From Escherichia phage YZ1: 38,823 nt of DNA. Each line of letters opens with the position of its first letter. Within the stretch, counting starts at the first letter, position 1. The stretch lies in the sequence record NC_047927.1; one strand, 5' to 3'. This document shows positions 2,086 through 38,247 of this stretch, one piece after another. Made by a program: the position numbers and the translations under genes. The notes below the pieces were generated by a model. It worked only from the letters and a program-made list of their open reading frames with translations. It had not been told where the DNA came from and ran no database searches.

Positions 2086-2108
2086 ACTTAACTATCACTA
2101 TAGGACTC
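2086..2108 (+). promoter_or_regulatory. Phage RNAP promoter upstream of the RNA polymerase gene
   Basis: TTAACTATCACTATAGGACTCA; matches the window consensus TAAACTATCACTATAGG with predicted +1 G at 2103. Confidence 0.7.
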
Positions 2109-2177: not shown

Positions 2178-4859
2178 ATGAGCGTCATCTCTATTGACAA
2201 ACACGACTTCTCTGATGTGTCGAACGCCATTGAGCCGTTTAACCTGCTGGCTGACCACTACGGGCAAGACCTTGCAGTCAAACAGCTTCAGCTTGAGCAC
2301 GAGGCATACACTGAAGGCGAGCGACGTTTCATCAAGAACCTTGAGCGCCAGACTGAGCGCGGGGAACTGGCAGACAATCAGGTCGCCAAGCCTTTGATGC
2401 AGACTCTGGTGCCTAAGATTGCGCAAGCAGTCAAGGAGTGGCACGAAGGCCAAGACGGGAAGCTGTCAACCTCTCGTCCTAGCGTAGCGTTCATCATGTT
2501 GAGCACTGAAGAGAAGGCCGTCAAGGACCGCTCTATGCGCATCTCCTGTGAGTCCGCTGCGGTTATCATACTCAAGGTCATACTCTCCAAGCTGGTCAAG
2601 CCTGAAGGGATACCGATTACACCGATGGCCTCCGCGATAGGTCGCACACTTGAGGACGAAATCCGCTTCGGTCGCATCCGTGACAAAGAGAAGGAGCACT
2701 TCAAGAAGGCGATAGCTGAGAACCTGAACAAGCGAGCTGGGGCATCCTACAAGAAAGCCTACATGCAAGCGGTCGAGGCGTCCATGCTGGAGCAAGGCCA
2801 ACTGGAAGATGCATGGGGGACTTGGAGTCCTACAGAGGCTGTCCACGTTGGCATCAAGATGCTCGAGATTGTCATCCAGTCAACACAACTGGTCGAGCTT
2901 AAGCGGTACGGTGCTGGTAATGCAGCGGCTGACGTAGAGATGGTCCACCTGTCAGACTTCTGGGTCAAGAAGATGACACAACGAGGATTCAGCCTTGCGG
3001 GTATCGCTCCAGTCTACCAGCCTTGCGTCGTTCCACCTAAGCCGTGGACTGGTGTCGTAGGTGGTGGGTACTGGGCCAAAGGTCGCAGACCGTTACCAGT
3101 GATTCGCTTAGGGTCTAAGTCTGCGGTAGCACGTTATGAAGACGTATACATGCCTGAAGTCTATGACGCTGTGAATATCATCCAGAATACACCATGGAAA
3201 GTGAACAAGAAGGTATTGGACGTGGTGAACATGGTCGAGAAGCTGAACAACACGCCTATTGACGACATCCCTCAGATGGAACCGCTGAAGCCTGAGGACT
3301 ATGCTGGTGAGACCGAGGAGGAACTCAAGGCATGGAAGAAGACTGCTGCTGGTATCTATCGCCGCGAGAAGGCCAGACAGTCACGCAGATTATCACTGAG
3401 CTTTATCGTTAACCAAGCAAACAAGTTCTCTCAGTTCAAGGCCATCTGGTTCCCGTACAACATGGATTGGCGAGGTCGTGTCTACGCTGTCCCGATGTTC
3501 AACCCTCAGGGTAACGACATGCAGAAGGGTCTCCTGACTCTGGCAGTCGGCAAGCCTATTGGTGCTGACGGTTTCAAATGGCTGAAGGTCCACGGTGCAA
3601 ACTGTGCGGGTGTCGATAAAGTCACCTTCGAGGAGCGCATCAAGTGGGTGGAAGACAACCACGAAAACATCATGGCTGCTGCTAAGGCACCGATGGATAG
3701 TATTGAGTGGTGGGGCAAGTTAGACTCTCCGTTCTGTTTCCTCGCGTTCTGCTTCGAGTATGCTGGCGTAATGCACCACGGCCTGTCTTACTCCTGCTCG
3801 CTGCCGATAGCGTTCGATGGGTCCTGCTCTGGTATTCAGCACTTCAGTGCGATGCTTCGTGACCACATCGGTGGACATGCAGTAAACCTGACGCCATCCG
3901 GTAAGGTACAAGACATCTACCGCATTGTGTCTGACCGCATTGAGGAGGAGCTTAAAGTCCTGCTGATTAATGGTACTGACAACGAGATGGTCACTCACGA
4001 GGATAAGAAAACTGGTGAGATTACCGAACGTATCAAGCTGGGGACACGAGAGCTGGCCCGTCAGTGGCTGCAATTCGGTATGTCTCGCTCGGTCACTAAG
4101 CGCTCGGTCATGACTCTGGCCTACGGGTCGAAAGAGTATGGGTTCGCCGACCAAGTGTTCGAAGACACCGTGATGCCAGCGATTGACTCCGGTAAGGGAG
4201 CTATGTTCACTGAACCAAGCCAAGCGTCTCGCTTCATGGCTAAGATGATTTGGGAAGCTGTGAGTGTGACCGTAGTTGCTGCGGTTGACGCGATGAAGTG
4301 GCTTCAAGGTGCTGCCAAGCTGCTGGCTGCTGAAGTGAAGGACAAGAAGACTGGAGAAATCCTGAAGCCTTGCCTTCCGGTACACTGGGTCACACCTGAT
4401 GGTTTCCCGGTCTGGCAGGAATACCGCAAGAAGGATACCACTCGTCTGAACCTGATGTTCTTAGGGTCATTCAATCTTCAGCCTACCGTCAACAGAGGTA
4501 CGAAGAAAGAGCTGGACAAGCACAAGCAGGAGTCAGGCATTAGCCCGAACTTCGTCCACTCACAAGATGGTAGCCACCTCCGCAAGACTGTAGTCCACAC
4601 TCACCGCAAGTATGGCGTGATGTCGTTCGCAGTGATTCACGATAGCTTCGGGACCATCCCGGCTGACGCTGAGTATCTGTTCCGTGGCGTCCGTGAGACG
4701 ATGGTCGAGACCTACCGAGACAACGATGTGCTGCTTGACTTCTACGAGCAGTTTGAATACCAGCTTCACGAGAGCCAGCGCGATAAGTTGCCAGAGCTTC
4801 CGAAGAAAGGTAAACTGAATATCGAAGACATCTTGTCTTCAGATTTTGCATTCGCTTAA
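2178..4859 (+). CDS. Single-subunit DNA-directed RNA polymerase (T7 gene 1 homolog, 893 aa)
   Basis: Full-length colinear similarity to T7 RNAP: N-terminal DFSD...IEPFNLLADHYG, conserved blocks such as VHWVTPDGFPVWQEY and PNFVHSQDGSHLRKTVV, and the C-terminal FAFA. Confidence 0.97.
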   Translation: MSVISIDKHDFSDVSNAIEPFNLLADHYGQDLAVKQLQLEHEAYTEGERRFIKNLERQTERGELADNQVAKPLMQTLVPKIAQAVKEWHEGQDGKLSTSRPSVAFIMLSTEEKAVKDRSMRISCESAAVIILKVILSKLVKPEGIPITPMASAIGRTLEDEIRFGRIRDKEKEHFKKAIAENLNKRAGASYKKAYMQAVEASMLEQGQLEDAWGTWSPTEAVHVGIKMLEIVIQSTQLVELKRYGAGNAAADVEMVHLSDFWVKKMTQRGFSLAGIAPVYQPCVVPPKPWTGVVGGGYWAKGRRPLPVIRLGSKSAVARYEDVYMPEVYDAVNIIQNTPWKVNKKVLDVVNMVEKLNNTPIDDIPQMEPLKPEDYAGETEEELKAWKKTAAGIYRREKARQSRRLSLSFIVNQANKFSQFKAIWFPYNMDWRGRVYAVPMFNPQGNDMQKGLLTLAVGKPIGADGFKWLKVHGANCAGVDKVTFEERIKWVEDNHENIMAAAKAPMDSIEWWGKLDSPFCFLAFCFEYAGVMHHGLSYSCSLPIAFDGSCSGIQHFSAMLRDHIGGHAVNLTPSGKVQDIYRIVSDRIEEELKVLLINGTDNEMVTHEDKKTGEITERIKLGTRELARQWLQFGMSRSVTKRSVMTLAYGSKEYGFADQVFEDTVMPAIDSGKGAMFTEPSQASRFMAKMIWEAVSVTVVAAVDAMKWLQGAAKLLAAEVKDKKTGEILKPCLPVHWVTPDGFPVWQEYRKKDTTRLNLMFLGSFNLQPTVNRGTKKELDKHKQESGISPNFVHSQDGSHLRKTVVHTHRKYGVMSFAVIHDSFGTIPADAEYLFRGVRETMVETYRDNDVLLDFYEQFEYQLHESQRDKLPELPKKGKLNIEDILSSDFAFA

Positions 4860-5163: not shown

Positions 5164-5186
5164 CCTAAACTATCACTATAGGATTA
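5164..5186 (+). promoter_or_regulatory. Phage RNAP promoter (T7 phi1.1-like position)
   Basis: CTAAACTATCACTATAGGATTAG, predicted +1 G at 5181. Confidence 0.75.
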
Positions 5187-5226
5187 GACTCAAGGTCATG
5201 ACCCAAAGTCGTGGCCTTCATGATTA
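5185..5226 (+). promoter_or_regulatory. Conserved hairpin copy 1 (putative RNase III site, T7 R1.1 position)
   Basis: TAGACTCAAGGTCAT-loop-GTGGCCTTCATGATTA; AAGGUCAU pairs with GUGGCCUU including G-U pairs. Same motif recurs at 12045 and 35468. Confidence 0.6.
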
Positions 5227-6854: not shown

Positions 6855-6877
6855 CCTAAGCTATCACTATAGGACAA
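6855..6877 (+). promoter_or_regulatory. Phage RNAP promoter (variant, G at -12)
   Basis: CTAAGCTATCACTATAGGACAAC, predicted +1 G at 6872. Confidence 0.65.
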
Positions 6878-7935: not shown

Positions 7936-7953
7936 ACTATCACTGTAGGACAG
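7931..7953 (+). promoter_or_regulatory. Phage RNAP promoter (variant CACTGTAGG; T7 phi2.5 position)
   Basis: CCTAAACTATCACTGTAGGACAG, predicted +1 G at 7948; G instead of A at -3. Confidence 0.55.
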
Positions 7954-9840: not shown

Positions 9841-10056
9841 ATGATTAAACTTATTGAATTTCTTGGTCGTCTGGTGGTGCGTGGTTATCGTCGTGCTGCG
9901 GTACTGGAACGAAAGGTAGAAAAGAAGACTGCTGACAGTGCGGCTGATGCTGCTGCTCTGGCTGACAAGCTGACCATCGCGTCACTGGAAGCTGGCATGA
10001 AGGCACGTCAAGCTGACACCAAAGCTGACCAGTTGGCTCAGTTCTTCAAAGCCTAA
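9841..10056 (+). CDS. Hypothetical protein (71 aa, Ala-rich, predicted coiled coil)
   Basis: ORF with AAGGAGAA SD 8 nt upstream. Confidence 0.5.
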   Translation: MIKLIEFLGRLVVRGYRRAAVLERKVEKKTADSAADAAALADKLTIASLEAGMKARQADTKADQLAQFFKA

Positions 10057-10075
10057 ACTATCACCTTAGGGATGG
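10053..10075 (+). promoter_or_regulatory. Phage RNAP promoter-like sequence (degenerate, CACCTTAGG) upstream of the primase-helicase gene
   Basis: GCCTAAACTATCACCTTAGGGATG; two core mismatches at -4/-3, so probably weak. Confidence 0.4.
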
Positions 10076-11876: not shown

Positions 11877-12041
11877 GTGTTTAAGAAACTTAAAGCTCGC
11901 TACCATCGGTTCATGTACAAATGGTGGAGTGATGAAGCAACCTGCCTGTCCAACATTCTGGGAGACCAGAGGTTCGACTCTAAGGCATGGAAGAAAGCTA
12001 ACCGGAAGTTTATGTATCACTTCTTGCGTACAGACTTCTAG
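11877..12041 (+). CDS. Hypothetical small basic protein (about 54 aa, GTG start)
   Basis: GGAGGA 9 nt upstream of GTG at 11877 (the track ORF begins at 11841); T7 gene 4.x region. Confidence 0.3.
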   Translation: MFKKLKARYHRFMYKWWSDEATCLSNILGDQRFDSKAWKKANRKFMYHFLRTDF

Positions 12042-12044
12042 GTC

Positions 12045-12084
12045 TAGACTCAAGGTCATTCACATCGAGTGGCCTTTATGATTA
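12045..12084 (+). promoter_or_regulatory. Conserved hairpin copy 2 (putative RNase III site, T7 R4.7 position)
   Basis: TAGACTCAAGGTCAT-loop-GTGGCCTTTATGATTA immediately upstream of the DNA polymerase gene. Confidence 0.6.
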
Positions 12085-16575: not shown

Positions 16576-16598
16576 ACTAAACTATCACTATAGGGACT
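16576..16598 (+). promoter_or_regulatory. Phage RNAP promoter (T7 phi6.5 position)
   Basis: CTAAACTATCACTATAGGGACTT, predicted +1 G at 16593. Confidence 0.75.
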
Positions 16599-17835: not shown

Positions 17836-19404
17836 ATGGCTGAACGTGAAGGGTTCGCTGCTGAAGGAGCCAAAGCGGTCTATGACCGACTGAAGAACGG
17901 TAGACAGCCATATGAGACACGCGCTCAGAACTGTGCTGCTGTCACTATCCCGTCACTGTTTCCTAAGGAGTCAGACAACTCGTCTACTGAGTACACAACT
18001 CCGTGGCAAGCTGTAGGTGCTCGTTGTTTGAACAACTTGGCTGCAAAGCTGATGTTGGCGTTATTCCCTCAGTCACCATGGATGAGACTGACAGTCTCCG
18101 AATATGAGGCCAAGACCTTGAGTCAGGACTCAGAGGCAGCTGCTCGTGTTGACGAAGGGCTGGCTATGGTCGAGCGTGTGTTGATGGCCTACATGGAGAC
18201 CAACAGTTTCCGTGTGCCATTGTTCGAAGCTCTGAAGCAGCTTATCGTCTCCGGTAACTGTCTGCTTTACATTCCAGAGCCTGAACAGGGTACTTACAGT
18301 CCTATGCGAATGTACCGCTTAGTGTCCTACGTTGTTCAACGTGATGCTTTCGGTAACATCTTGCAGATTGTGACTCTCGACAAGGTAGCGTTTAGTGCTC
18401 TACCGGAAGACGTGAAGTCTCAACTCAATGCAGACGACTATGAGCCTGACACAGAGCTGGAAGTGTATACGCACATCTACCGTCAGGACGACGAGTATCT
18501 GCGCTACGAGGAAGTGGAAGGAATTGAGGTAGCAGGGACAGAGGGTTCTTACCCACTGACTGCATGTCCGTACATCCCGGTACGAATGGTTCGACTGGAT
18601 GGTGAAGACTATGGTCGTTCTTACTGCGAGGAGTATCTGGGAGACCTGAACTCGCTGGAGACGATTACAGAAGCTATCACCAAAATGGCTAAGGTAGCCT
18701 CCAAGGTGGTGGGCCTCGTTAACCCGAACGGTATCACGCAACCTCGTCGTCTGAACAAGGCGGCTACAGGTGAGTTCGTGGCTGGTCGCGTTGAGGACAT
18801 CAACTTCCTGCAACTGACGAAAGGTCAGGACTTTACGATTGCCAAGTCGGTGGCTGATGCTATCGAGCAACGTTTAGGCTGGGCCTTCCTTCTTAATAGT
18901 GCTGTTCAGCGTAATGCCGAGCGAGTCACTGCTGAAGAGATTCGTTATGTTGCTGGCGAACTGGAGGCGACCCTAGGTGGCGTGTACTCAGTACAGTCAC
19001 AAGAGCTTCAGTTACCTATAGTCCGTGTGCTGATGAACCAGCTTCAGTCTGCTGGCATGATTCCTGACCTTCCGAAAGAAGCGGTAGAGCCTACGGTCTC
19101 CACTGGTCTGGAAGCTCTGGGTCGTGGTCAGGACTTGGAGAAGCTAACTCAGGCAGTCAACATGATGACAGGACTACAGCCTCTGCAACAGGACCCAGAC
19201 ATTAACTTGCCTACCCTTAAGCTGCGACTGCTGAATGCCTTAGGCATTGATACTGCTGGCCTTCTGCTGACTCAGGACGAGAAGATGCAACGTATTGCTG
19301 AACAATCCGCTCAAGGAGCTGTGGTCAACGGTGCGTCTGCCGCTGGTGCTAACATGGGTGCCGCTGTAGGTCAGGGAGCTGGTGAGGACATGGCTCAAGC
19401 CTAA
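17836..19404 (+). CDS. Head-to-tail connector (portal) protein (T7 gene 8 homolog, 522 aa)
   Basis: Long colinear identity with T7 gp8: PYETRAQNCA, PWQAVGAR, YRLVSYVVQRDAFGN, RMVRLDGEDYGRSY, ERVTAEEIRYVA. Confidence 0.96.
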   Translation: MAEREGFAAEGAKAVYDRLKNGRQPYETRAQNCAAVTIPSLFPKESDNSSTEYTTPWQAVGARCLNNLAAKLMLALFPQSPWMRLTVSEYEAKTLSQDSEAAARVDEGLAMVERVLMAYMETNSFRVPLFEALKQLIVSGNCLLYIPEPEQGTYSPMRMYRLVSYVVQRDAFGNILQIVTLDKVAFSALPEDVKSQLNADDYEPDTELEVYTHIYRQDDEYLRYEEVEGIEVAGTEGSYPLTACPYIPVRMVRLDGEDYGRSYCEEYLGDLNSLETITEAITKMAKVASKVVGLVNPNGITQPRRLNKAATGEFVAGRVEDINFLQLTKGQDFTIAKSVADAIEQRLGWAFLLNSAVQRNAERVTAEEIRYVAGELEATLGGVYSVQSQELQLPIVRVLMNQLQSAGMIPDLPKEAVEPTVSTGLEALGRGQDLEKLTQAVNMMTGLQPLQQDPDINLPTLKLRLLNALGIDTAGLLLTQDEKMQRIAEQSAQGAVVNGASAAGANMGAAVGQGAGEDMAQA

Positions 19405-19422
19405 ACTATCACTATAGGAACA
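19400..19422 (+). promoter_or_regulatory. Phage RNAP promoter (T7 phi9 position)
   Basis: CCTAAACTATCACTATAGGAACA, predicted +1 G at 19417. Confidence 0.75.
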
Positions 19423-20398: not shown

Positions 20399-20421
20399 AC
20401 TAAACTATCACTATAGGGAGA
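20399..20421 (+). promoter_or_regulatory. Phage RNAP promoter upstream of the capsid gene (T7 phi10 position, best consensus match)
   Basis: ACTAAACTATCACTATAGGGAGACC, predicted +1 G at 20416. Confidence 0.85.
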
Positions 20422-22357: not shown

Positions 22358-24714
22358 TGCCGCTTATTACGCAAAGCATAAAAAATCTTAAGGGTGGCAT
22401 TAGCCAGCAGCCTGATATACTGAGGTTCTCAGACCAAGGCGAGGCGCAGGTTAACTGCTGGTCATCCGAGAGTGATGGCCTCCAGAAGCGCCCACCTACA
22501 GTCTTCAAGCGACGTCTTAACATCGACGTTGGGAGCAACCCTAAGTTCCACCTGATTAACCGTGACGAGCATGAGCAGTATTACATCGTGTTCAATGGGT
22601 CAAACATTCAGGTAGTTGACTTGAGTGGAAATCAATACTCAGTGTCAGGTGCGGTAGACTACGTTAAGTCCTCCAGCCCACGAGATGACATCCGTGTCGT
22701 TACCGTGGCAGACTATACGTTCGTCGTTAACCGTAAGGTTGTCGTCAAAGGTGGAAGCGAGAAGTCACACTCTGGTTATAACCGCAAAGCACGAGCTTTA
22801 ATTAACCTGCGTGGTGGACAGTATGGTCGAACCCTTAAGGTGGGAATCAACGGTGGCGTTAAGGTCTCGCATAAGCTACCAGCAGGTAATGATGCAGAGA
22901 ATGACCCACCTAAGGTGGACGCTCAAGCCATTGGTGCAGCTCTGAGAGACCTTCTTGTTACTGCCTATCCTTCTTTCACGTTTGACCTTGGGTCTGGCTT
23001 CCTGCTAATCACAGCTCCTTCAGGGACCGATATTAACTCAGTGGAGACGGAGGATGGCTACGCTAACCAGCTAATAAGCCCAGTCCTAGACACTGTGCAG
23101 ACAATCTCTAAACTACCTCTTGCAGCTCCTAATGGGTATATCATTAAGATTCAAGGTGAGACAAACAGTAGCGCCGATGAATACTACGTGATGTATGACT
23201 CCAACACTAAGACGTGGAAGGAGACAGTGGAGCCGGGAGTTGTCACTGGGTTCGATAACACCACAATGCCACACGCTCTGGTACGACAATCTGATGGCTC
23301 CTTTGAGTTCAAGACTCTGGATTGGTCCAAGCGCGGTTCTGGTAACGATGACACAAACCCTATGCCTAGCTTCGTGGATGCTGTGATTAATGATGTGTTC
23401 TTCTACAGGAACAGGCTTGGGTTCTTGTCGGGTGAGAACGTAATCATGAGCCGTTCAGCCAGCTACTTTTCGTTCTTCCCTAAGAGTGTGGCGACACTGA
23501 GCGATGATGACCCTATTGATGTAGCTGTAAGTCACCCTCGAATCTCAATCCTTAAGTATGCCGTTCCGTTTAGTGAGCAGTTACTACTTTGGTCGGATGA
23601 GGTTCAGTTCGTGATGACAAGCTCTGGGGTACTTACCTCGAAGTCTATCCAGCTTGATGTAGGCTCAGAGTTTGCCTTAGGTGATAATGCCAGACCGTTC
23701 GCTGTAGGACGCTCAGTCTTCTTCTCAGCTCCTCGTGGGTCATTCACCAGCATTAAGCGATACTTCGCTGTAGCTGATGTGTCTGATGTGAAGGATGCTG
23801 ATGATACAACCGGTCACGTATTGTCCTACATCCCTAACGGGGTGTTTGATATTCAAGGTACAGGGACTGAGAACTACATCTGCGTCAACTCTACAGGTGC
23901 ATACAACCGTATCTACATCTACAAGTTCTTGTTTAAGGACGGCGTACAGCTTCAAGCCTCTTGGTCACACTGGGAGTTCCCTAAAGATGATAAGATTCTG
24001 GCGTCTGCTTCTATTGGCTCTACCATGTTCATCGTTCGTCAGCACCAAGGAGGGGTAGACATTGAGCACCTTAAGTTCATCAAGGAGGCAACTGACTTCC
24101 CGTCAGAGCCGTATAGACTCCACATTGACTCCAAGGTGTCTATGGTAATTCCAATTGGCTCATATAATGCTGACACCTATAAGACTACGGTTGACATTGG
24201 TGCTGCTTATGGTGGCAACGCTCCGTCTCCCGGTCGGTACTATCTGATTGACAGTCAGGGTGCTTATGTGGACATTGGGGACTTGACCAGTATCTCTACT
24301 GTGATTACCCTCAACGGCGATTGGTCAGGACGCACAGTGTTCATCGGACGGTCCTATCTTATGTCCTACAAGTTCTCACGGTTCCTGATTAAGATTGAAG
24401 ATGATAGTGGAACTCAGTCTGAAGACACTGGTCGCCTACAGCTTCGTCGGGCTTGGGTCAACTACAAGGACACTGGCGCTCTGAGACTCATTGTCAGAAA
24501 CGGTGAGCGGGAGTTCGTGAACACCTTTAATGGGTACACCCTTGGTCAGCAAACCATCGGTACTACAAACATTGGTGACGGGCAGTATCGCTTCGCTATG
24601 AATGGTAACGCATTAACCACTAGTCTAACCTTAGAGTCCGATTATCCTACCCCAGTGTCAATCGTTGGGTGTGGCTGGGAGGCGTCATACGCTAAGAAAG
24701 CTCGTTCCGTCTAA
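22357..24714 (+). CDS. Tail tubular protein B (T7 gene 12 homolog, 785 aa)
   Basis: N-terminal ITQSIKNLKGGISQQPDILR, HLINRDEHEQYY, MPHALVR, FFYRNRLGFLSGEN, LKYAVPFSE, RLQLRRAWVNY and C-terminal IVGCGWE; colinear with T7 gp12. Confidence 0.95.
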   Translation: MPLITQSIKNLKGGISQQPDILRFSDQGEAQVNCWSSESDGLQKRPPTVFKRRLNIDVGSNPKFHLINRDEHEQYYIVFNGSNIQVVDLSGNQYSVSGAVDYVKSSSPRDDIRVVTVADYTFVVNRKVVVKGGSEKSHSGYNRKARALINLRGGQYGRTLKVGINGGVKVSHKLPAGNDAENDPPKVDAQAIGAALRDLLVTAYPSFTFDLGSGFLLITAPSGTDINSVETEDGYANQLISPVLDTVQTISKLPLAAPNGYIIKIQGETNSSADEYYVMYDSNTKTWKETVEPGVVTGFDNTTMPHALVRQSDGSFEFKTLDWSKRGSGNDDTNPMPSFVDAVINDVFFYRNRLGFLSGENVIMSRSASYFSFFPKSVATLSDDDPIDVAVSHPRISILKYAVPFSEQLLLWSDEVQFVMTSSGVLTSKSIQLDVGSEFALGDNARPFAVGRSVFFSAPRGSFTSIKRYFAVADVSDVKDADDTTGHVLSYIPNGVFDIQGTGTENYICVNSTGAYNRIYIYKFLFKDGVQLQASWSHWEFPKDDKILASASIGSTMFIVRQHQGGVDIEHLKFIKEATDFPSEPYRLHIDSKVSMVIPIGSYNADTYKTTVDIGAAYGGNAPSPGRYYLIDSQGAYVDIGDLTSISTVITLNGDWSGRTVFIGRSYLMSYKFSRFLIKIEDDSGTQSEDTGRLQLRRAWVNYKDTGALRLIVRNGEREFVNTFNGYTLGQQTIGTTNIGDGQYRFAMNGNALTTSLTLESDYPTPVSIVGCGWEASYAKKARSV

Positions 24715-24721
24715 CTTATTG

Positions 24722-24771
24722 AAGGGCCTATAGATTTACCTTAACTATCACTATAGGGACTATAGGCCCTT
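24722..24771 (+). promoter_or_regulatory. Perfect 12-bp inverted repeat (AAGGGCCTATAG / CTATAGGCCCTT) enclosing the next phage promoter
   Basis: Arms at 24722-24733 and 24760-24771 are exact reverse complements with a 26-nt loop that contains the promoter core; possible RNase III site or terminator analogous to T7 R13. Confidence 0.5.
24739..24761 (+). promoter_or_regulatory. Phage RNAP promoter (T7 phi13 position)
   Basis: CTTAACTATCACTATAGGGACTA, predicted +1 G at 24756. Confidence 0.75.
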
Positions 24772-31100: not shown

Positions 31101-32019
31101 TAGCCTGACTGGTAGTAAGCGTAAGTTCGATGACCGCTGGCTTAAGACCGCTGGTATCTCTGATGAGCAGTGGAAGGGCATTAAGTCCCTCATCCGAGAG
31201 TCAGTGACTCGTGGTCCAGACGGGAAGTACACCATCAAGGATAAGAAGGCGTTCAGTCAGGACCCAAGGGCTATGGACCTGTGGCGTATGGGTGACATCA
31301 TCGCTGATGAAACGTTACTACGACCTCATAAGCTGTCTAACATGGATGCCAAGGCTTATGGCCCTCTAGCTAAGACTGTCCTTCAGTTTAAGAACTTCGT
31401 CATCAAGTCCATCAATGGGCGAACCATGCGTACCTTCTATAACGCCACGAAGAACAACCGAGCGATGGATGCTGCTCTATCTACCGTGATGTCTATGGGT
31501 CTGGCTGGAATGTACTACATGGCGCAGGCGCACATCAAGGCTTACGCTATGCAGGATGGTCGCGACCGAGAGTATCTGAAGCAAGCCCTTAACCCGACAA
31601 TGATTGGCTATGCGGCTCTGTCCCGTAGCTCCCACTTGGGTGGACCACTTGGGGTCGCCAACATTCTGGGCGGCATCGCTGGGTATGAGGACACTAAGCT
31701 GCTCCGTTCGTCTATCCTGCCACGTTCACCAACAGAGAAACCTGAACGCGCCATCTCGTATGGTGCAGCTACAAGTGACCCTGTGATGAATGTAGTCGGC
31801 AACTTCCTTGAGCAGGTTCCGGCTTTCGGATATGCCGCTAACGTGGGGGCTTCGGCTTACAACTTGGCTGGATACCTGAAGGCTGACACCCGTGTGAATG
31901 AGCGAGACTACATGACCGGGATGTATAACACTTTCCGCGAACTGGTTCCGAACGACCCCATTACCCAGAAGCTGATTCTGGGAACATTTGAGGAACAAGG
32001 CATCCACATCAAGGACTAA
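28132..32019 (+). CDS. Internal virion protein D (T7 gene 16 homolog, 1295 aa) with a divergent N-terminal domain
   Basis: Strong colinear similarity to T7 gp16 from about residue 200 (TWFGF, VTGGSP.NL, GAGVDPL.YVP, RLEARETARN, VRSPTGMQSGASGK, GTYVPHVY, AYGISH, NGLVG.ENNSFLEARNLFDSD, ILTGRARR, RPHK, C-terminal NDP.TQ). The N-terminal 130 aa carry an NNPGNIR motif rather than the T7 transglycosylase signature. Confidence 0.95.
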   Translation: MATRGIRNNNPGNIRVSKDQWEGMTGDDGSFVTFDSPESGVRALGKNLLSYGRQGYDSIEKIINRWAPPNENDTKAYIDSVVAATGIPATQSLDLSDPDTLSSLAQAISFHETGSRYDPEVYQKGVARALNGITPKTPPVSANVFDALTEGLKAKPKVALGENLPTAAGLNIEGQAPEAPNESFGEMFYKSTGETMQEREDRSTWFGFGSATEAEVKNSMVGVAIRAGQTEDSLDVIGDVFNPTRWNNHKWSREELDQIRNAGVLPQYYGVITGGSPQNLTELINLALENQKLDQEKAKAGTGAQLAAGVIGAGVDPLTYVPIAGQVGKGGKLVNKMFTVAAQSGALAGASEIARTSVAGGDAHVAEAILGGALFGGGMTAIADGLGRALGRNTNEFAGPATRLEARETARNVDGQDLSRLPIQEGEQTFSHQGVKFADVPNEPGSVRLEDGSILIGENPLNPKTRQVFDEVIEPERAAAGVNLGGLTEIGLKLLRSENPEIRGVAADLVRSPTGMQSGASGKIGTTASDVFERLRAVDHRFYNDIDDAVTEALKDPYFQTAFWRDSGAFRQDIYQRVSMAIEDGSGNLKAELTPGELKVYDLLKNQFDAKREMMENPAMFGRPDAQSIFPGSRFKGTYVPHVYSKQMKELYIKELGSPESLQEAIKKSWLTSYASRPEVKKRVDEALLEADPTLTPEGLAAAVDKYANDKAYGISHTEQFERSSVMEENINGLVGLENNSFLEARNLFDSDMSIVLPNGQTFSVNNLREWDMDKIVPAYNRRVNGDIAIMAGTGKTTKDMKDLVETMMNKAGDDGKLKGEVSTLRDTLKILTGRARRDGADDAALSTVMRTMTDLSFFAKNAYMGVQNLTEIGGMLARGNVRAMLHGVPIFRDLAFRNKKVGASEIKDLHNVIFGKELDDSIRPSKQDVIDRLRSYSDLGRGTATALGTAKYYTGELAVRSPFTKVLNGTTNYLLDAGRQGFLSDIVEHSLTGSKRKFDDRWLKTAGISDEQWKGIKSLIRESVTRGPDGKYTIKDKKAFSQDPRAMDLWRMGDIIADETLLRPHKLSNMDAKAYGPLAKTVLQFKNFVIKSINGRTMRTFYNATKNNRAMDAALSTVMSMGLAGMYYMAQAHIKAYAMQDGRDREYLKQALNPTMIGYAALSRSSHLGGPLGVANILGGIAGYEDTKLLRSSILPRSPTEKPERAISYGAATSDPVMNVVGNFLEQVPAFGYAANVGASAYNLAGYLKADTRVNERDYMTGMYNTFRELVPNDPITQKLILGTFEEQGIHIKD

Positions 32020-32037
32020 ACTATCACTATAGGAACC
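32015..32037 (+). promoter_or_regulatory. Phage RNAP promoter (T7 phi17 position)
   Basis: GACTAAACTATCACTATAGGAACC, predicted +1 G at 32032. Confidence 0.75.
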
Positions 32038-35213: not shown

Positions 35214-35473
35214 CACAAATGGACTTAGAGAAGTTCTTACTGATGCTGGATACGGAGCGTGCTCGCCTCATGTTGCAAGACTTGAGGGATGACACTAAGC
35301 GCTCGCCACAGCTCTACAACGCCATTGAGAAGCTACTTGCTCGTCACAACTTTGTGTTAAGCAAGGTGTCTGTGGACGAGAAGACACTGGCTGATATGGA
35401 GGCCCTGAACGCAGAGTACGATAAGGTGCTTTCAGCGACTGAGGATAATGACACCGGGTATGGTGTTCAATAA
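35210..35473 (+). CDS. Small terminase subunit / DNA maturase A (T7 gene 18 homolog, 87 aa)
   Basis: LLMLDT, RSPQLYNAIEKLLARH conserved with T7 gp18; lies before the large terminase as in T7. Confidence 0.85.
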   Translation: MTQMDLEKFLLMLDTERARLMLQDLRDDTKRSPQLYNAIEKLLARHNFVLSKVSVDEKTLADMEALNAEYDKVLSATEDNDTGYGVQ

Positions 35474-35504
35474 GTGTTAGACTCAAGGTCATCGTCAGGT
35501 GGCC
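35468..35504 (+). promoter_or_regulatory. Conserved hairpin copy 3 (putative RNase III site, T7 R18.5 position)
   Basis: TAGACTCAAGGTCAT-loop-GTGGCCTTTATGATTA directly after gene 18. Confidence 0.6.
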
Positions 35505-38130: not shown

Positions 38131-38224
38131 CTGAATGAATAACTATAGGCGAAAACTGAATTAATACGCAGTTAGTAACCTATAGTTACTACCAGTCTAA
38201 CCTACTGTTTTATAAGGAGTTTGG

Positions 38225-38247
38225 ACTTAACTATCACTATAGGAAGA
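38225..38247 (+). promoter_or_regulatory. Phage RNAP promoter near the right end (T7 phiOR position)
   Basis: ACTTAACTATCACTATAGGAAGAC, predicted +1 G at 38242. Confidence 0.7.

Follow-up and report, generated by a model that had tools for sequence, protein, structure and literature searches.

The K1F-type polymerase-promoter pair is already known and is used in synthetic biology. The pair has reportedly been catalogued since publication of the K1F genome, the K1F hairpin has been an orthogonal synthetic-biology part since 2012, and work from 2025 mapped the rules by which promoter bases relate to residues 748, 756 and 758. In the T7 RNA polymerase (RNAP) the specificity loop comprises residues 739-770 (PMC8874028, PMC11617373) and promoter bases are contacted by R746, N748, R756 and Q758, with the contacts R756:G-9 (template strand), Q758:A-8 and R746:G-7. 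A published DCA covering K740-E768 found strong couplings only at positions 746, 748, 756, 757 and 758, with residue 756 coupled to promoter positions -10/-9. T7 residues 93-101 act at promoter positions -17 to -13. The C-terminal part of the loop (T7 763-771, here called the tail) is not far from the DNA, since in an MD study T7 K765 occasionally formed salt bridges with the non-template strand at -12 to -10.

The K1F hairpin has also been moved into the T7 enzyme. When Q744-I761 of T7 RNAP was replaced by the K1F hairpin, the resulting polymerase was active on ACTAT promoters (Temme et al. 2012), with 17-fold induction for this T7(K1F) graft compared with 42-fold for T7. The mutations introduced by the graft are 754S, 756N and 761V (Zhu 2025, Table 2). 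T7(K1F) was reported to be orthogonal to T7, T3 and N4 variant-promoter pairs, and according to Zhu et al. the orthogonality of the K1F graft is limited. In a split-polymerase context T7(K1F) needed the mutation M750R, which adds positive charge. Given that the graft is weaker than T7 and that M750R was needed, activity may also depend on residues outside 744-761.

The window examined here, i.e. the whole stretch of 38,823 nucleotides from Escherichia phage YZ1, is a Kayfunavirus genome (a K1F-like coliphage of the T7 family) with 95-98% nucleotide identity to many Kayfunavirus records. The product of its gene 1 (Table 1) could be aligned end to end with T7 RNAP (residues 1-893 against 1-883; E=0 in HMMER, PDB 1aro/1cez). 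Matches to the Pfam families PF00940 (RNA_pol, 352 bits) and PF14700 (RPOL_N, 53 bits) were both above the cut-offs. The catalytic motifs AFDGSCSGIQH and IHDSFGT were invariant in the alignment, and their aspartates are D547 and D822 in YZ1, equivalent to the catalytic aspartates D537 and D812 of T7, respectively. The initial annotation had described the C-terminal region as well conserved, and this holds, with 71% identity over T7 550-883. Near the loop, the YZ1 residue number minus 10 gives the T7 residue number. K1F gp1 (NC_007456) is likewise 893 aa long and is 98% identical to the YZ1 RNAP at the amino acid level; the two loops are identical over T7 739-762, including the hairpin. Identity to the YZ1 RNAP was complete over T7 715-800 in two Kayfunavirus contigs (L009 and L010, 100%) and across the C-terminal 193 aa in phage LNA3 (100%). 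With N758, S764, N766 and Q768 (T7 N748, S754, N756 and Q758) YZ1 fits the K1F-type specificity class, and the loop with which it recognises promoters is that of an ordinary RNAP from a K1F-like coliphage.

Eleven sites on the + strand of the window matched ACTATCACTATAGG (2 mismatches or fewer), and no promoter match was obtained on the - strand at the same threshold, the chance expectation in the window being about 3.3 loose matches. The final promoter lists contain strict matches (up to 2 mismatches in 14 nt); searches at loose thresholds let in weak false sites and were replaced, and seeding on the most frequent 10-mer was rejected, as it caught an unrelated short repeat (ACCTACAGTC) in several Kayfunavirus loci. 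As a control, the promoter finder recovered 16/17 annotated T7 promoters with the +1 position exact. The YZ1 consensus is c-CTAA ACTAT CACTATA GG, and the 11 sites confirm the distinct ACTAT element that the initial annotation had proposed. The element occupies positions -12 to -8, where T7 has CGACT; the T7 promoter is identical to that of YZ1 from -8 to +2 and differs at -17 to -14 and at -12 to -9. K1F has 11 promoters with ACTAT at -12 to -8, which are syntenic and correspond one-for-one to those of YZ1. For example, the promoter located 75 nt 5' of the RNAP start codon (2086..2108) has its syntenic counterpart in K1F at 2491. The region of the polymerase aligned to the AT-rich recognition loop of T7 carries a 13-aa insertion (STEEKAVKDRSMR) that is absent from T7, and it is divergent in step with the change at -17 to -13 from TAATA in T7 to CCTAA in YZ1.

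Table 1. Coordinates of the RNAP gene, its promoter-recognition segments and the phage promoters in the YZ1 window.
Coordinates	Strand	Feature	Sequence or residues	Basis
2178..4859	+	Gene 1, T7-like single-subunit DNA-dependent RNA polymerase, K1F type	893 aa	ORF
2454..2540 (approximate)	+	Region aligned to T7 AT-rich recognition loop (T7 93-101), with insertion		Alignments
4422..4517	+	Specificity loop, aa 749-780 (T7 739-770)	YRKKDTTRLNLMFLGSFNLQPTVNRGTKKELD	Translation, T7 alignment
4437..4490	+	Beta-hairpin core, aa 754-771 (T7 744-761)	TTRLNLMFLGSFNLQPTV	K1F swap segment
4443..4451	+	Codons R756-L757-N758 (T7 R746, L747, N748)	Base-contact residues as in T7	Alignments
4467..4475	+	Codons S764-F765-N766 (T7 Q754, F755, R756)	tca ttc aat	Q754S, R756N
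4479..4481	+	Codon Q768 (T7 Q758)	Base-contact residue as in T7	Alignment
4494..4520	+	Substitution cluster at loop C-terminal base, aa 773-781 (T7 763-771 TNKDSEIDA)	RGTKKELDK	
2086..2108	+	Promoter, +1 at 2103	ACTTA ACTAT CACTATA GGACTC	
5164..5186	+	Promoter, +1 at 5181	CCTAA ACTAT CACTATA GGATTA	
6855..6877	+	Promoter, +1 at 6872	CCTAA GCTAT CACTATA GGACAA	
7931..7953	+	Promoter, +1 at 7948	CCTAA ACTAT CACTGTA GGACAG	
10052..10074	+	Promoter, +1 at 10069	CCTAA ACTAT CACCTTA GGGATG	
16576..16598	+	Promoter, +1 at 16593	ACTAA ACTAT CACTATA GGGACT	
19400..19422	+	Promoter, +1 at 19417	CCTAA ACTAT CACTATA GGAACA	
20399..20421	+	Promoter, +1 at 20416	ACTAA ACTAT CACTATA GGGAGA	
24739..24761	+	Promoter, +1 at 24756	CCTTA ACTAT CACTATA GGGACT	
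32015..32037	+	Promoter, +1 at 32032	ACTAA ACTAT CACTATA GGAACC	
38225..38247	+	Promoter, +1 at 38242	ACTTA ACTAT CACTATA GGAAGA	

The specificity-loop insertion is present in the YZ1 RNAP without gaps, and fold and length are the same as in the T7 loop (PDB 1cez/1qln), with no indel. Of its 32 residues 19 are identical between YZ1 and T7; 14 substitutions were counted in T7 739-771, 13 of them inside 739-770, with Q754S and R756N among them. At the contact positions 746, 748, 756 and 758 YZ1 has R, N, N and Q, i.e. R746, N748 and Q758 are conserved and R756 is replaced by asparagine (N766, codon 4473-4475), and two residues upstream Q754 is replaced by serine (S764). The unchanged Q758 fits the T at -8 in T7 and YZ1 promoters alike, and position -7 is C in both promoters, beside the unchanged R746/L747/N748. 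Position -11 differs (G in T7, C in YZ1) even though N748 is unchanged, and for this the three-residue model gives no simple account.

The initial annotation had singled out a peptide in this loop, LQPTVNRGTKKELDKHKQESG, and had proposed that its substitutions cluster in the loop contacting promoter positions -12 to -8 and match the ACTAT element. The peptide is present in the translated RNAP (aa 767-787, nt 4476-4538; positions 4422-4538 of the window translate to YRKKDTTRLNLMFLGSFNLQPTVNRGTKKELDKHKQESG), and the T7 counterpart given for it, LQPTINTNKDSEIDAHKQESG, is correct (T7 757-777; HMMER against PDB T7 RNAP; NC_001604). The range assigned to the segment, 4486-4540, begins 10 nt late for this peptide but covers every substituted codon (V771 at 4488 to K781 at 4520). 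The substitutions are eight in number, namely I761V, T763R, N764G, K765T, D766K, S767K, I769L and A771K. The alignment with T7 did not place them outside the loop, given that 7/8 fall inside T7 739-770 (761, 763-767 and 769) and A771K lies just beyond it, but the cluster at 763-771 forms the C-terminal base of the loop, outside the 744-761 hairpin. Only I761V belongs to the 744-761 segment, and 763-771 was not transferred in the published graft. The base-contacting or strongly coupled positions 746, 748, 756, 757 and 758 include none of the eight that are substituted; L757 and Q758 within the peptide are both as in T7, Q758 being the one known base-contact residue that it contains. The proposed match between loop and promoter is therefore supported for the loop as a whole, which diverges in step with ACTAT versus CGACT, but not for the flagged substitutions, since the changed contact residue R756N and its neighbour Q754S lie just upstream of both the peptide and the range assigned to it.

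Comparison with related phages indicated that the tail tracks clade rather than promoter. Between YZ1 and K1F it differs by one residue (R773 in YZ1, K in K1F), and inside Kayfunavirus it is polymorphic with promoters unchanged, having R/K at position 763 and T/S/M/G at position 765; the variants NRGTKK, NKGTKK, NKGSKK and NKGMKK all occur with ACTAT (4/4). Ro103C3lw, which belongs to the same genus as YZ1, combines a K1F-clade backbone and the tail NKGSSKELDK with D748/T754/R756 and 12 syntenic promoters that carry ACCCT, and this tail is 1 residue away from NKGSKKELDK, a tail of ACTAT-using Kayfunaviruses. Relative to the YZ1 tail, only one or two residues are changed in Ro103C3lw-type phages with ACCCT promoters. 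In L018 the tail NLGKSKEMDK is found with AGGTA promoters. The K1F-type tail thus occurs with ACTAT, ACCCT and AGGTA, T7-type tails (NT.KDS.IDA) are found with CGACT, ACCCT, ACCCA and GGGCA, and ACTAT itself is found with both K1F-type and PPWS4-type tails. Pectobacterium phage PPWS4/PP81 (Pektosvirus) shares the ACTAT element (12 ACTAT-bearing promoters in PPWS4) as well as N748, S754 and Q758 with YZ1, but PPWS4 differs in having H756, the unrelated tail NTYETVGIDA, an overall identity of about 61% and AATTA rather than CCTAA at -17 to -13. Similarly, engineered T7(K1F) (Temme et al. 2012; K1FR sigma fragment, Segall-Shapiro et al. 2014) has the hairpin substitutions of YZ1 and uses the ACTAT element, and unlike YZ1 it retains the tail (763-771, TNKDSEIDA), the N-flank (740-743) and the AT-rich loop of T7, with lower activity.

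In the hairpin, two unrelated clades combine ACTAT with S754 and either N756 or H756, and C at -9 is accompanied by R756. T3 RNAP, the T7 N748D switch and the Ro103C3lw and Cronobacter GW1-type enzymes resemble YZ1 in that a few hairpin residues retarget -11 to -9, whereas the T3, Ro103C3lw and GW1-type RNAPs differ from it in having D748 and R756 with ACCCT promoters. Raw mutual information was dropped as a discriminator since, owing to shared ancestry, position 756 (0.69 with -9) was inseparable from positions 763-767 (0.65-0.78) in the sample of 37 unique loop/promoter combinations from 80 loci; the same shared-ancestry problem was reported by Zhu et al. Position 756 and positions 763-767 were instead told apart by the sister-clade contrasts and the published graft.

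From the loop and promoter sequences, the contrasts among natural phages and the outcome of the published graft, it is very probable that Q754S and R756N retarget recognition to ACTAT and that the flagged cluster is a clade marker and not the determinant. The segment would constitute the C-terminal half of a K1F-type specificity loop, in which the hairpin tip would enter the major groove and read promoter positions -11 to -7. With R746, N748 and Q758 retained, S764 and N766 would most likely switch the preference at -10/-9 from A-C to T-A and thereby yield the ACTAT element of the YZ1 promoters. How N766 and S764 make contact at the atomic level in the K1F enzyme is inferred. The RGTKKELDK stretch would be the proximal base of the loop, drifting within the genus; it would be neither required for ACTAT recognition nor a predictor of it, and would at most tune non-specific affinity. 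Use of ACTAT by the native YZ1 enzyme is predicted from its sequence, the published activity data being those of engineered T7(K1F) only.

There is an even chance that the cluster lacks functional meaning and has arisen by neutral drift, in a linker exposed on the surface. With 3/11 identical residues, T7 761-771 is the second-poorest 11-aa window within T7 550-883, another C-terminal window (T7 576-586) being still more divergent, and the clustering was not beyond what is expected by chance, as 32% of 20,000 shuffles of the identity vector held an 11-aa window that was as poor or poorer. The variability of 763 and 765 within the genus points in the same direction. However, no variation was seen at K767, E768, D770 or K771 anywhere in the K1F clade, not even in members with other promoters, and this suggests some constraint. 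Drift in the linker is compatible with a promoter switch caused by Q754S and R756N, and not opposed to it.

It is unlikely that the basic tail acts as a non-specific affinity module that partly offsets the lost Arg756-G(-9) bond while leaving base preference unset, although several observations fit: its net charge is +2 in YZ1 compared with -2 in T7, the whole K1F clade retains K767 and K771, K765 forms the salt bridges to the non-template strand described above, and the loop is part of the exit-channel lid in elongation. A more specific version, in which R773, K776, K777 and K781 touch the backbone at about -12 to -10 or the nascent transcript in the exit channel, thereby offsetting the Arg756-G(-9) loss, is quite doubtful. 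If true, an affinity role would account for the weakness of the minimal K1F graft and for its rescue by the positive charge of M750R, and addition of the K1F tail to engineered orthogonal polymerases would improve them. Compensation of charge for the loss of R756 showed no consistent relation across clades, however, and was kept as a low-probability alternative: the tails of K11 (N756) and PPWS4 (H756) have a charge of -2 and that of Ro103C3lw (R756) has +1. The basic tail therefore looks clade-inherited rather than compensatory.

That the ACTAT switch is due to the flagged changes at T7 761-771 (V, R, G, T, K, K, L, K) and to their own contacts with -12 to -8 is highly improbable and already largely refuted, for although these residues lie mostly within the 739-770 loop, covary with -9 as well as 756 does in the raw data and include a position (K765) near the non-template strand at -12 to -10 in simulations, ACTAT is read with three unrelated tails (K1F type, NTYETVGIDA and the T7 tail in T7(K1F)), a near-identical K1F-type tail stands beside ACCCT promoters in Ro103C3lw, no strong coupling was found at 761-771 in the published DCA (K740-E768), and the tail varies within the genus at constant promoters.

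The assignment of the switch to Q754S and R756N carries little weight as a discovery, and its practical lesson concerns annotation. Substitutions that occur in a run within a "specificity loop" do not by themselves show that specificity has changed. What is informative is a set of four or five residues at the tip of the hairpin, of which the decisive ones in YZ1, S764 and N766, lie just outside the peptide that had been flagged. Within a single genus, a set of 11-12 syntenic promoters has switched between ACTAT and ACCCT, in one direction or the other, together with three residues of the hairpin. This co-switch of promoter and hairpin is of some evolutionary interest and is consistent with known principles.

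The 893-aa product of gene 1 aligned over its full length with T7 RNA polymerase (RNAP; PDB 1aro/1cez; E=0) and contained both Pfam RNAP domains, the gene was 95-98% identical in nucleotide sequence to those of dozens of Kayfunavirus (K1F-like) coliphages and the protein was 98% identical to K1F gp1. From this homology the window was assigned to the K1F-type members of the T7 family. Several RefSeq phage records, including NC_007456 and NC_047819, call the T7-like RNAP an 'N4-like RNA polymerase', a misleading name given the end-to-end alignment with T7 RNAP.

Promoters were listed as matches to ACTATCACTATAGG with at most two mismatches on both strands of the window, which gave 11 matches on the plus strand and none on the minus strand, in one-for-one correspondence with the eleven of K1F. 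Applied to T7, the promoter-discovery procedure found 16 of its 17 annotated promoters, each with +1 exact. In T7 register the window consensus is c-CTAA ACTAT CACTATA GG. It departs from the T7 promoter (TAATA CGACT CACTATA GG) at -17..-14 and -12..-9, with every base from -8 to +2 the same, which confirms that the -12..-8 element is distinct from that of T7, as the initial annotation had it. At RNAP aa ~93-121, DGKLSTSRP stands where the T7 AT-rich recognition loop has KAKRGKRPT and is followed by a 13-aa insertion, STEEKAVKDRSMR (K11 RNAP has a longer, different insertion at this site); these changes parallel the -17..-13 change from TAATA to CCTAA.

Features of the window discussed in the text
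Feature	Position	Strand	Basis or remark
RNAP gene (gene 1)	2178..4859	+	ORF, 893-aa product
AT-rich-loop region of RNAP	about 2454-2540		
Flagged peptide, aa 767-787 of RNAP	4476-4538		
Phage promoters, +1 positions	2103, 5181, 6872, 7948, 10069, 16593, 19417, 20416, 24756, 32032, 38242	+	ACTATCACTATAGG match
Full-consensus promoter upstream of gene 1	2086-2108		+1 at 2103
Promoters with additional upstream similarity	2058-2105, 24711-24758, 38197-38244		
21-nt repeat, 3 copies	5179-5199, 12039-12059, 35472-35492		
Direct-repeat array (short repeats), core CCTACAGT	219-303		copies at 219, 235, 251, 281, 295
Further CCTACAGT copy	38763		near right end

Since a phage promoter lies directly 5' of gene 1 (75 nt from its start), the phage RNAP could transcribe its own gene in a positive feedback. 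This promoter is kept in K1F (+1 at 2491), Escherichia phage Ro103C3lw (2487) and the compared locus L018 (3373), and gh-1 likewise has an annotated phage promoter upstream of its RNAP, whereas in T7 the only promoter at this place is an E. coli one. Three promoters, the ones with T instead of A at -14 (ACTTA or CCTTA at -17..-13), shared ~20-25 nt of additional upstream similarity (CTAACC...) and may be a distinct subclass. The first copy of a 21-nt repeat, TAGG(A/T)(T/C)TAGACTCAAGGTCAT, begins at -2 of the promoter with +1 at 5181; the repeat may serve as an RNase III site or as a leader element. The CCTACAGT-core repeat, more numerous than promoters in other Kayfunavirus loci, is probably the counterpart of the repeat arrays close to T7-family genome ends.

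The initial annotation had also singled out an RNAP peptide whose substitutions it placed in the specificity loop and matched to ACTAT. The peptide is present, its start having been put 10 nt late with all substituted codons inside the range, and the T7 counterpart given for it, LQPTINTNKDSEIDAHKQESG (T7 757-777), is exact by alignment. Window positions 4422-4538 translate to YRKKDTTRLNLMFLGSFNLQPTVNRGTKKELDKHKQESG. Relative to T7 735-780 the changes (T7 numbering, window residue minus 10) are K740R, P742K, I743D, Q744T, Q754S, R756N, I761V, T763R, N764G, K765T, D766K, S767K, I769L, A771K and A779S. The C-terminal third is otherwise conserved, as claimed (71% identical to T7). Only 3/11 residues are identical at T7 761-771, the second-poorest 11-aa window of this third, but 32% of shuffles yielded one as poor, so the clustering is real yet statistically unremarkable. 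With the loop conventionally defined as T7 739-770 (PMC8874028, PMC11617373), seven of the eight flagged substitutions fall inside it and the remaining one outside.

Base-specific contacts in T7 RNAP are made at the hairpin tip by R746, N748, R756 and Q758 (R756:G-9, Q758:A-8, R746:G-7). In the window these positions are occupied by R, N, N and Q. Among them only R756N (window N766, codon 4473-4475) is a change, and it lies, like Q754S close by (window S764), immediately 5' of the flagged peptide. The only contact residue within the peptide, Q758, is the same as in T7, consistent with the T at -8 common to both promoters. The proposed match of the flagged substitutions to ACTAT was not supported. 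N748 is also unchanged although -11 differs (G to C), for which there is no simple account.

The suggested loop swap has already been published. Temme et al. put the K1F hairpin in place of T7 Q744-I761 and exchanged promoter -12..-7 for the K1F consensus, and the resulting T7(K1F) was active (17-fold) and orthogonal (PMC3458549); Table 2 of Zhu et al. gives the graft as R632S plus Q754S, R756N and I761V with ACTAT as cognate element (PMC11880802). Since T7(K1F) uses ACTAT while keeping the T7 tail TNKDSEIDA (T7 763-771; RGTKKELDK in the window), recognition of ACTAT does not require the flagged cluster. The minimal graft was less active than T7 (PMC3458549), and in a split enzyme the K1F graft required M750R. 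In a direct-coupling analysis of K740-E768 against promoters, the dominant couplings were confined to 746, 748, 756, 757 and 758 (PMC11880802).

A comparison of loop sequences and of promoter sets found de novo took in T7, T3, K11, gh-1, K1F, 80 IMG/VR loci and two further complete genomes. Kayfunaviruses with four different tails (NRGTKKELDK, NKGTKKELDK, NKGSKKELDK and NKGMKKELDK) all have ACTAT promoters. Ro103C3lw (L086, MN067430), of the same genus, has the tail NKGSSKELDK, a single residue from an ACTAT-associated one, but D748/T754/R756 and 12 promoters with ACCCT, syntenic with those of the window and matching down to the +1..+6 bases. In Pectobacterium phage PPWS4 (L087, NC_047819; Pektosvirus; identity about 61%) the tail (NTYETVGIDA) is unrelated, yet the RNAP has N748/S754/H756/Q758 and ACTAT stands in 12 promoters. 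L018 combines a K1F-like tail (NLGKSKEMDK) with AGGTA promoters, and T7-type tails (NT.KDS.IDA) were found with CGACT, ACCCT, ACCCA and GGGCA promoters. Taken together, these contrasts show that the tail tracks clade and the promoter element tracks residues 748, 754, 756 and 758. Raw mutual information with -9 was about 0.7 for both 756 and 763-767, not separated in this small sample because of shared ancestry.

Kayfunavirus contains two promoter specificities (window versus L086; also locus L020). At all 11-12 syntenic promoters -10/-9 is TA in the window and CC in Ro103C3lw, with no promoters intermediate between the ACTAT and ACCCT types in either genome, and RNAP residues 748, 754 and 756 are N/S/N versus D/T/R (codons AAC>GAC, TCA>ACT, AAT>CGT). 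The distant Pektosvirus (L087; also loci L047 and L051) has ACTAT and S754 in common with the window, with H756 replacing N756, a likeness at the hairpin tip suggestive of convergence or of an old state common to both.

The tail may contribute to non-specific affinity, being markedly more basic than that of T7 (net charge +2 versus -2); a published MD study of T7 reported occasional salt bridges of K765 to the non-template strand at -12..-10, but across clades basic tails did not correlate with loss of R756. The original observation was correct and its interpretation holds for the loop as a whole, but not for which residues matter. The polymerase and promoters of the window form an unexceptional K1F-type pair that has been characterised before.
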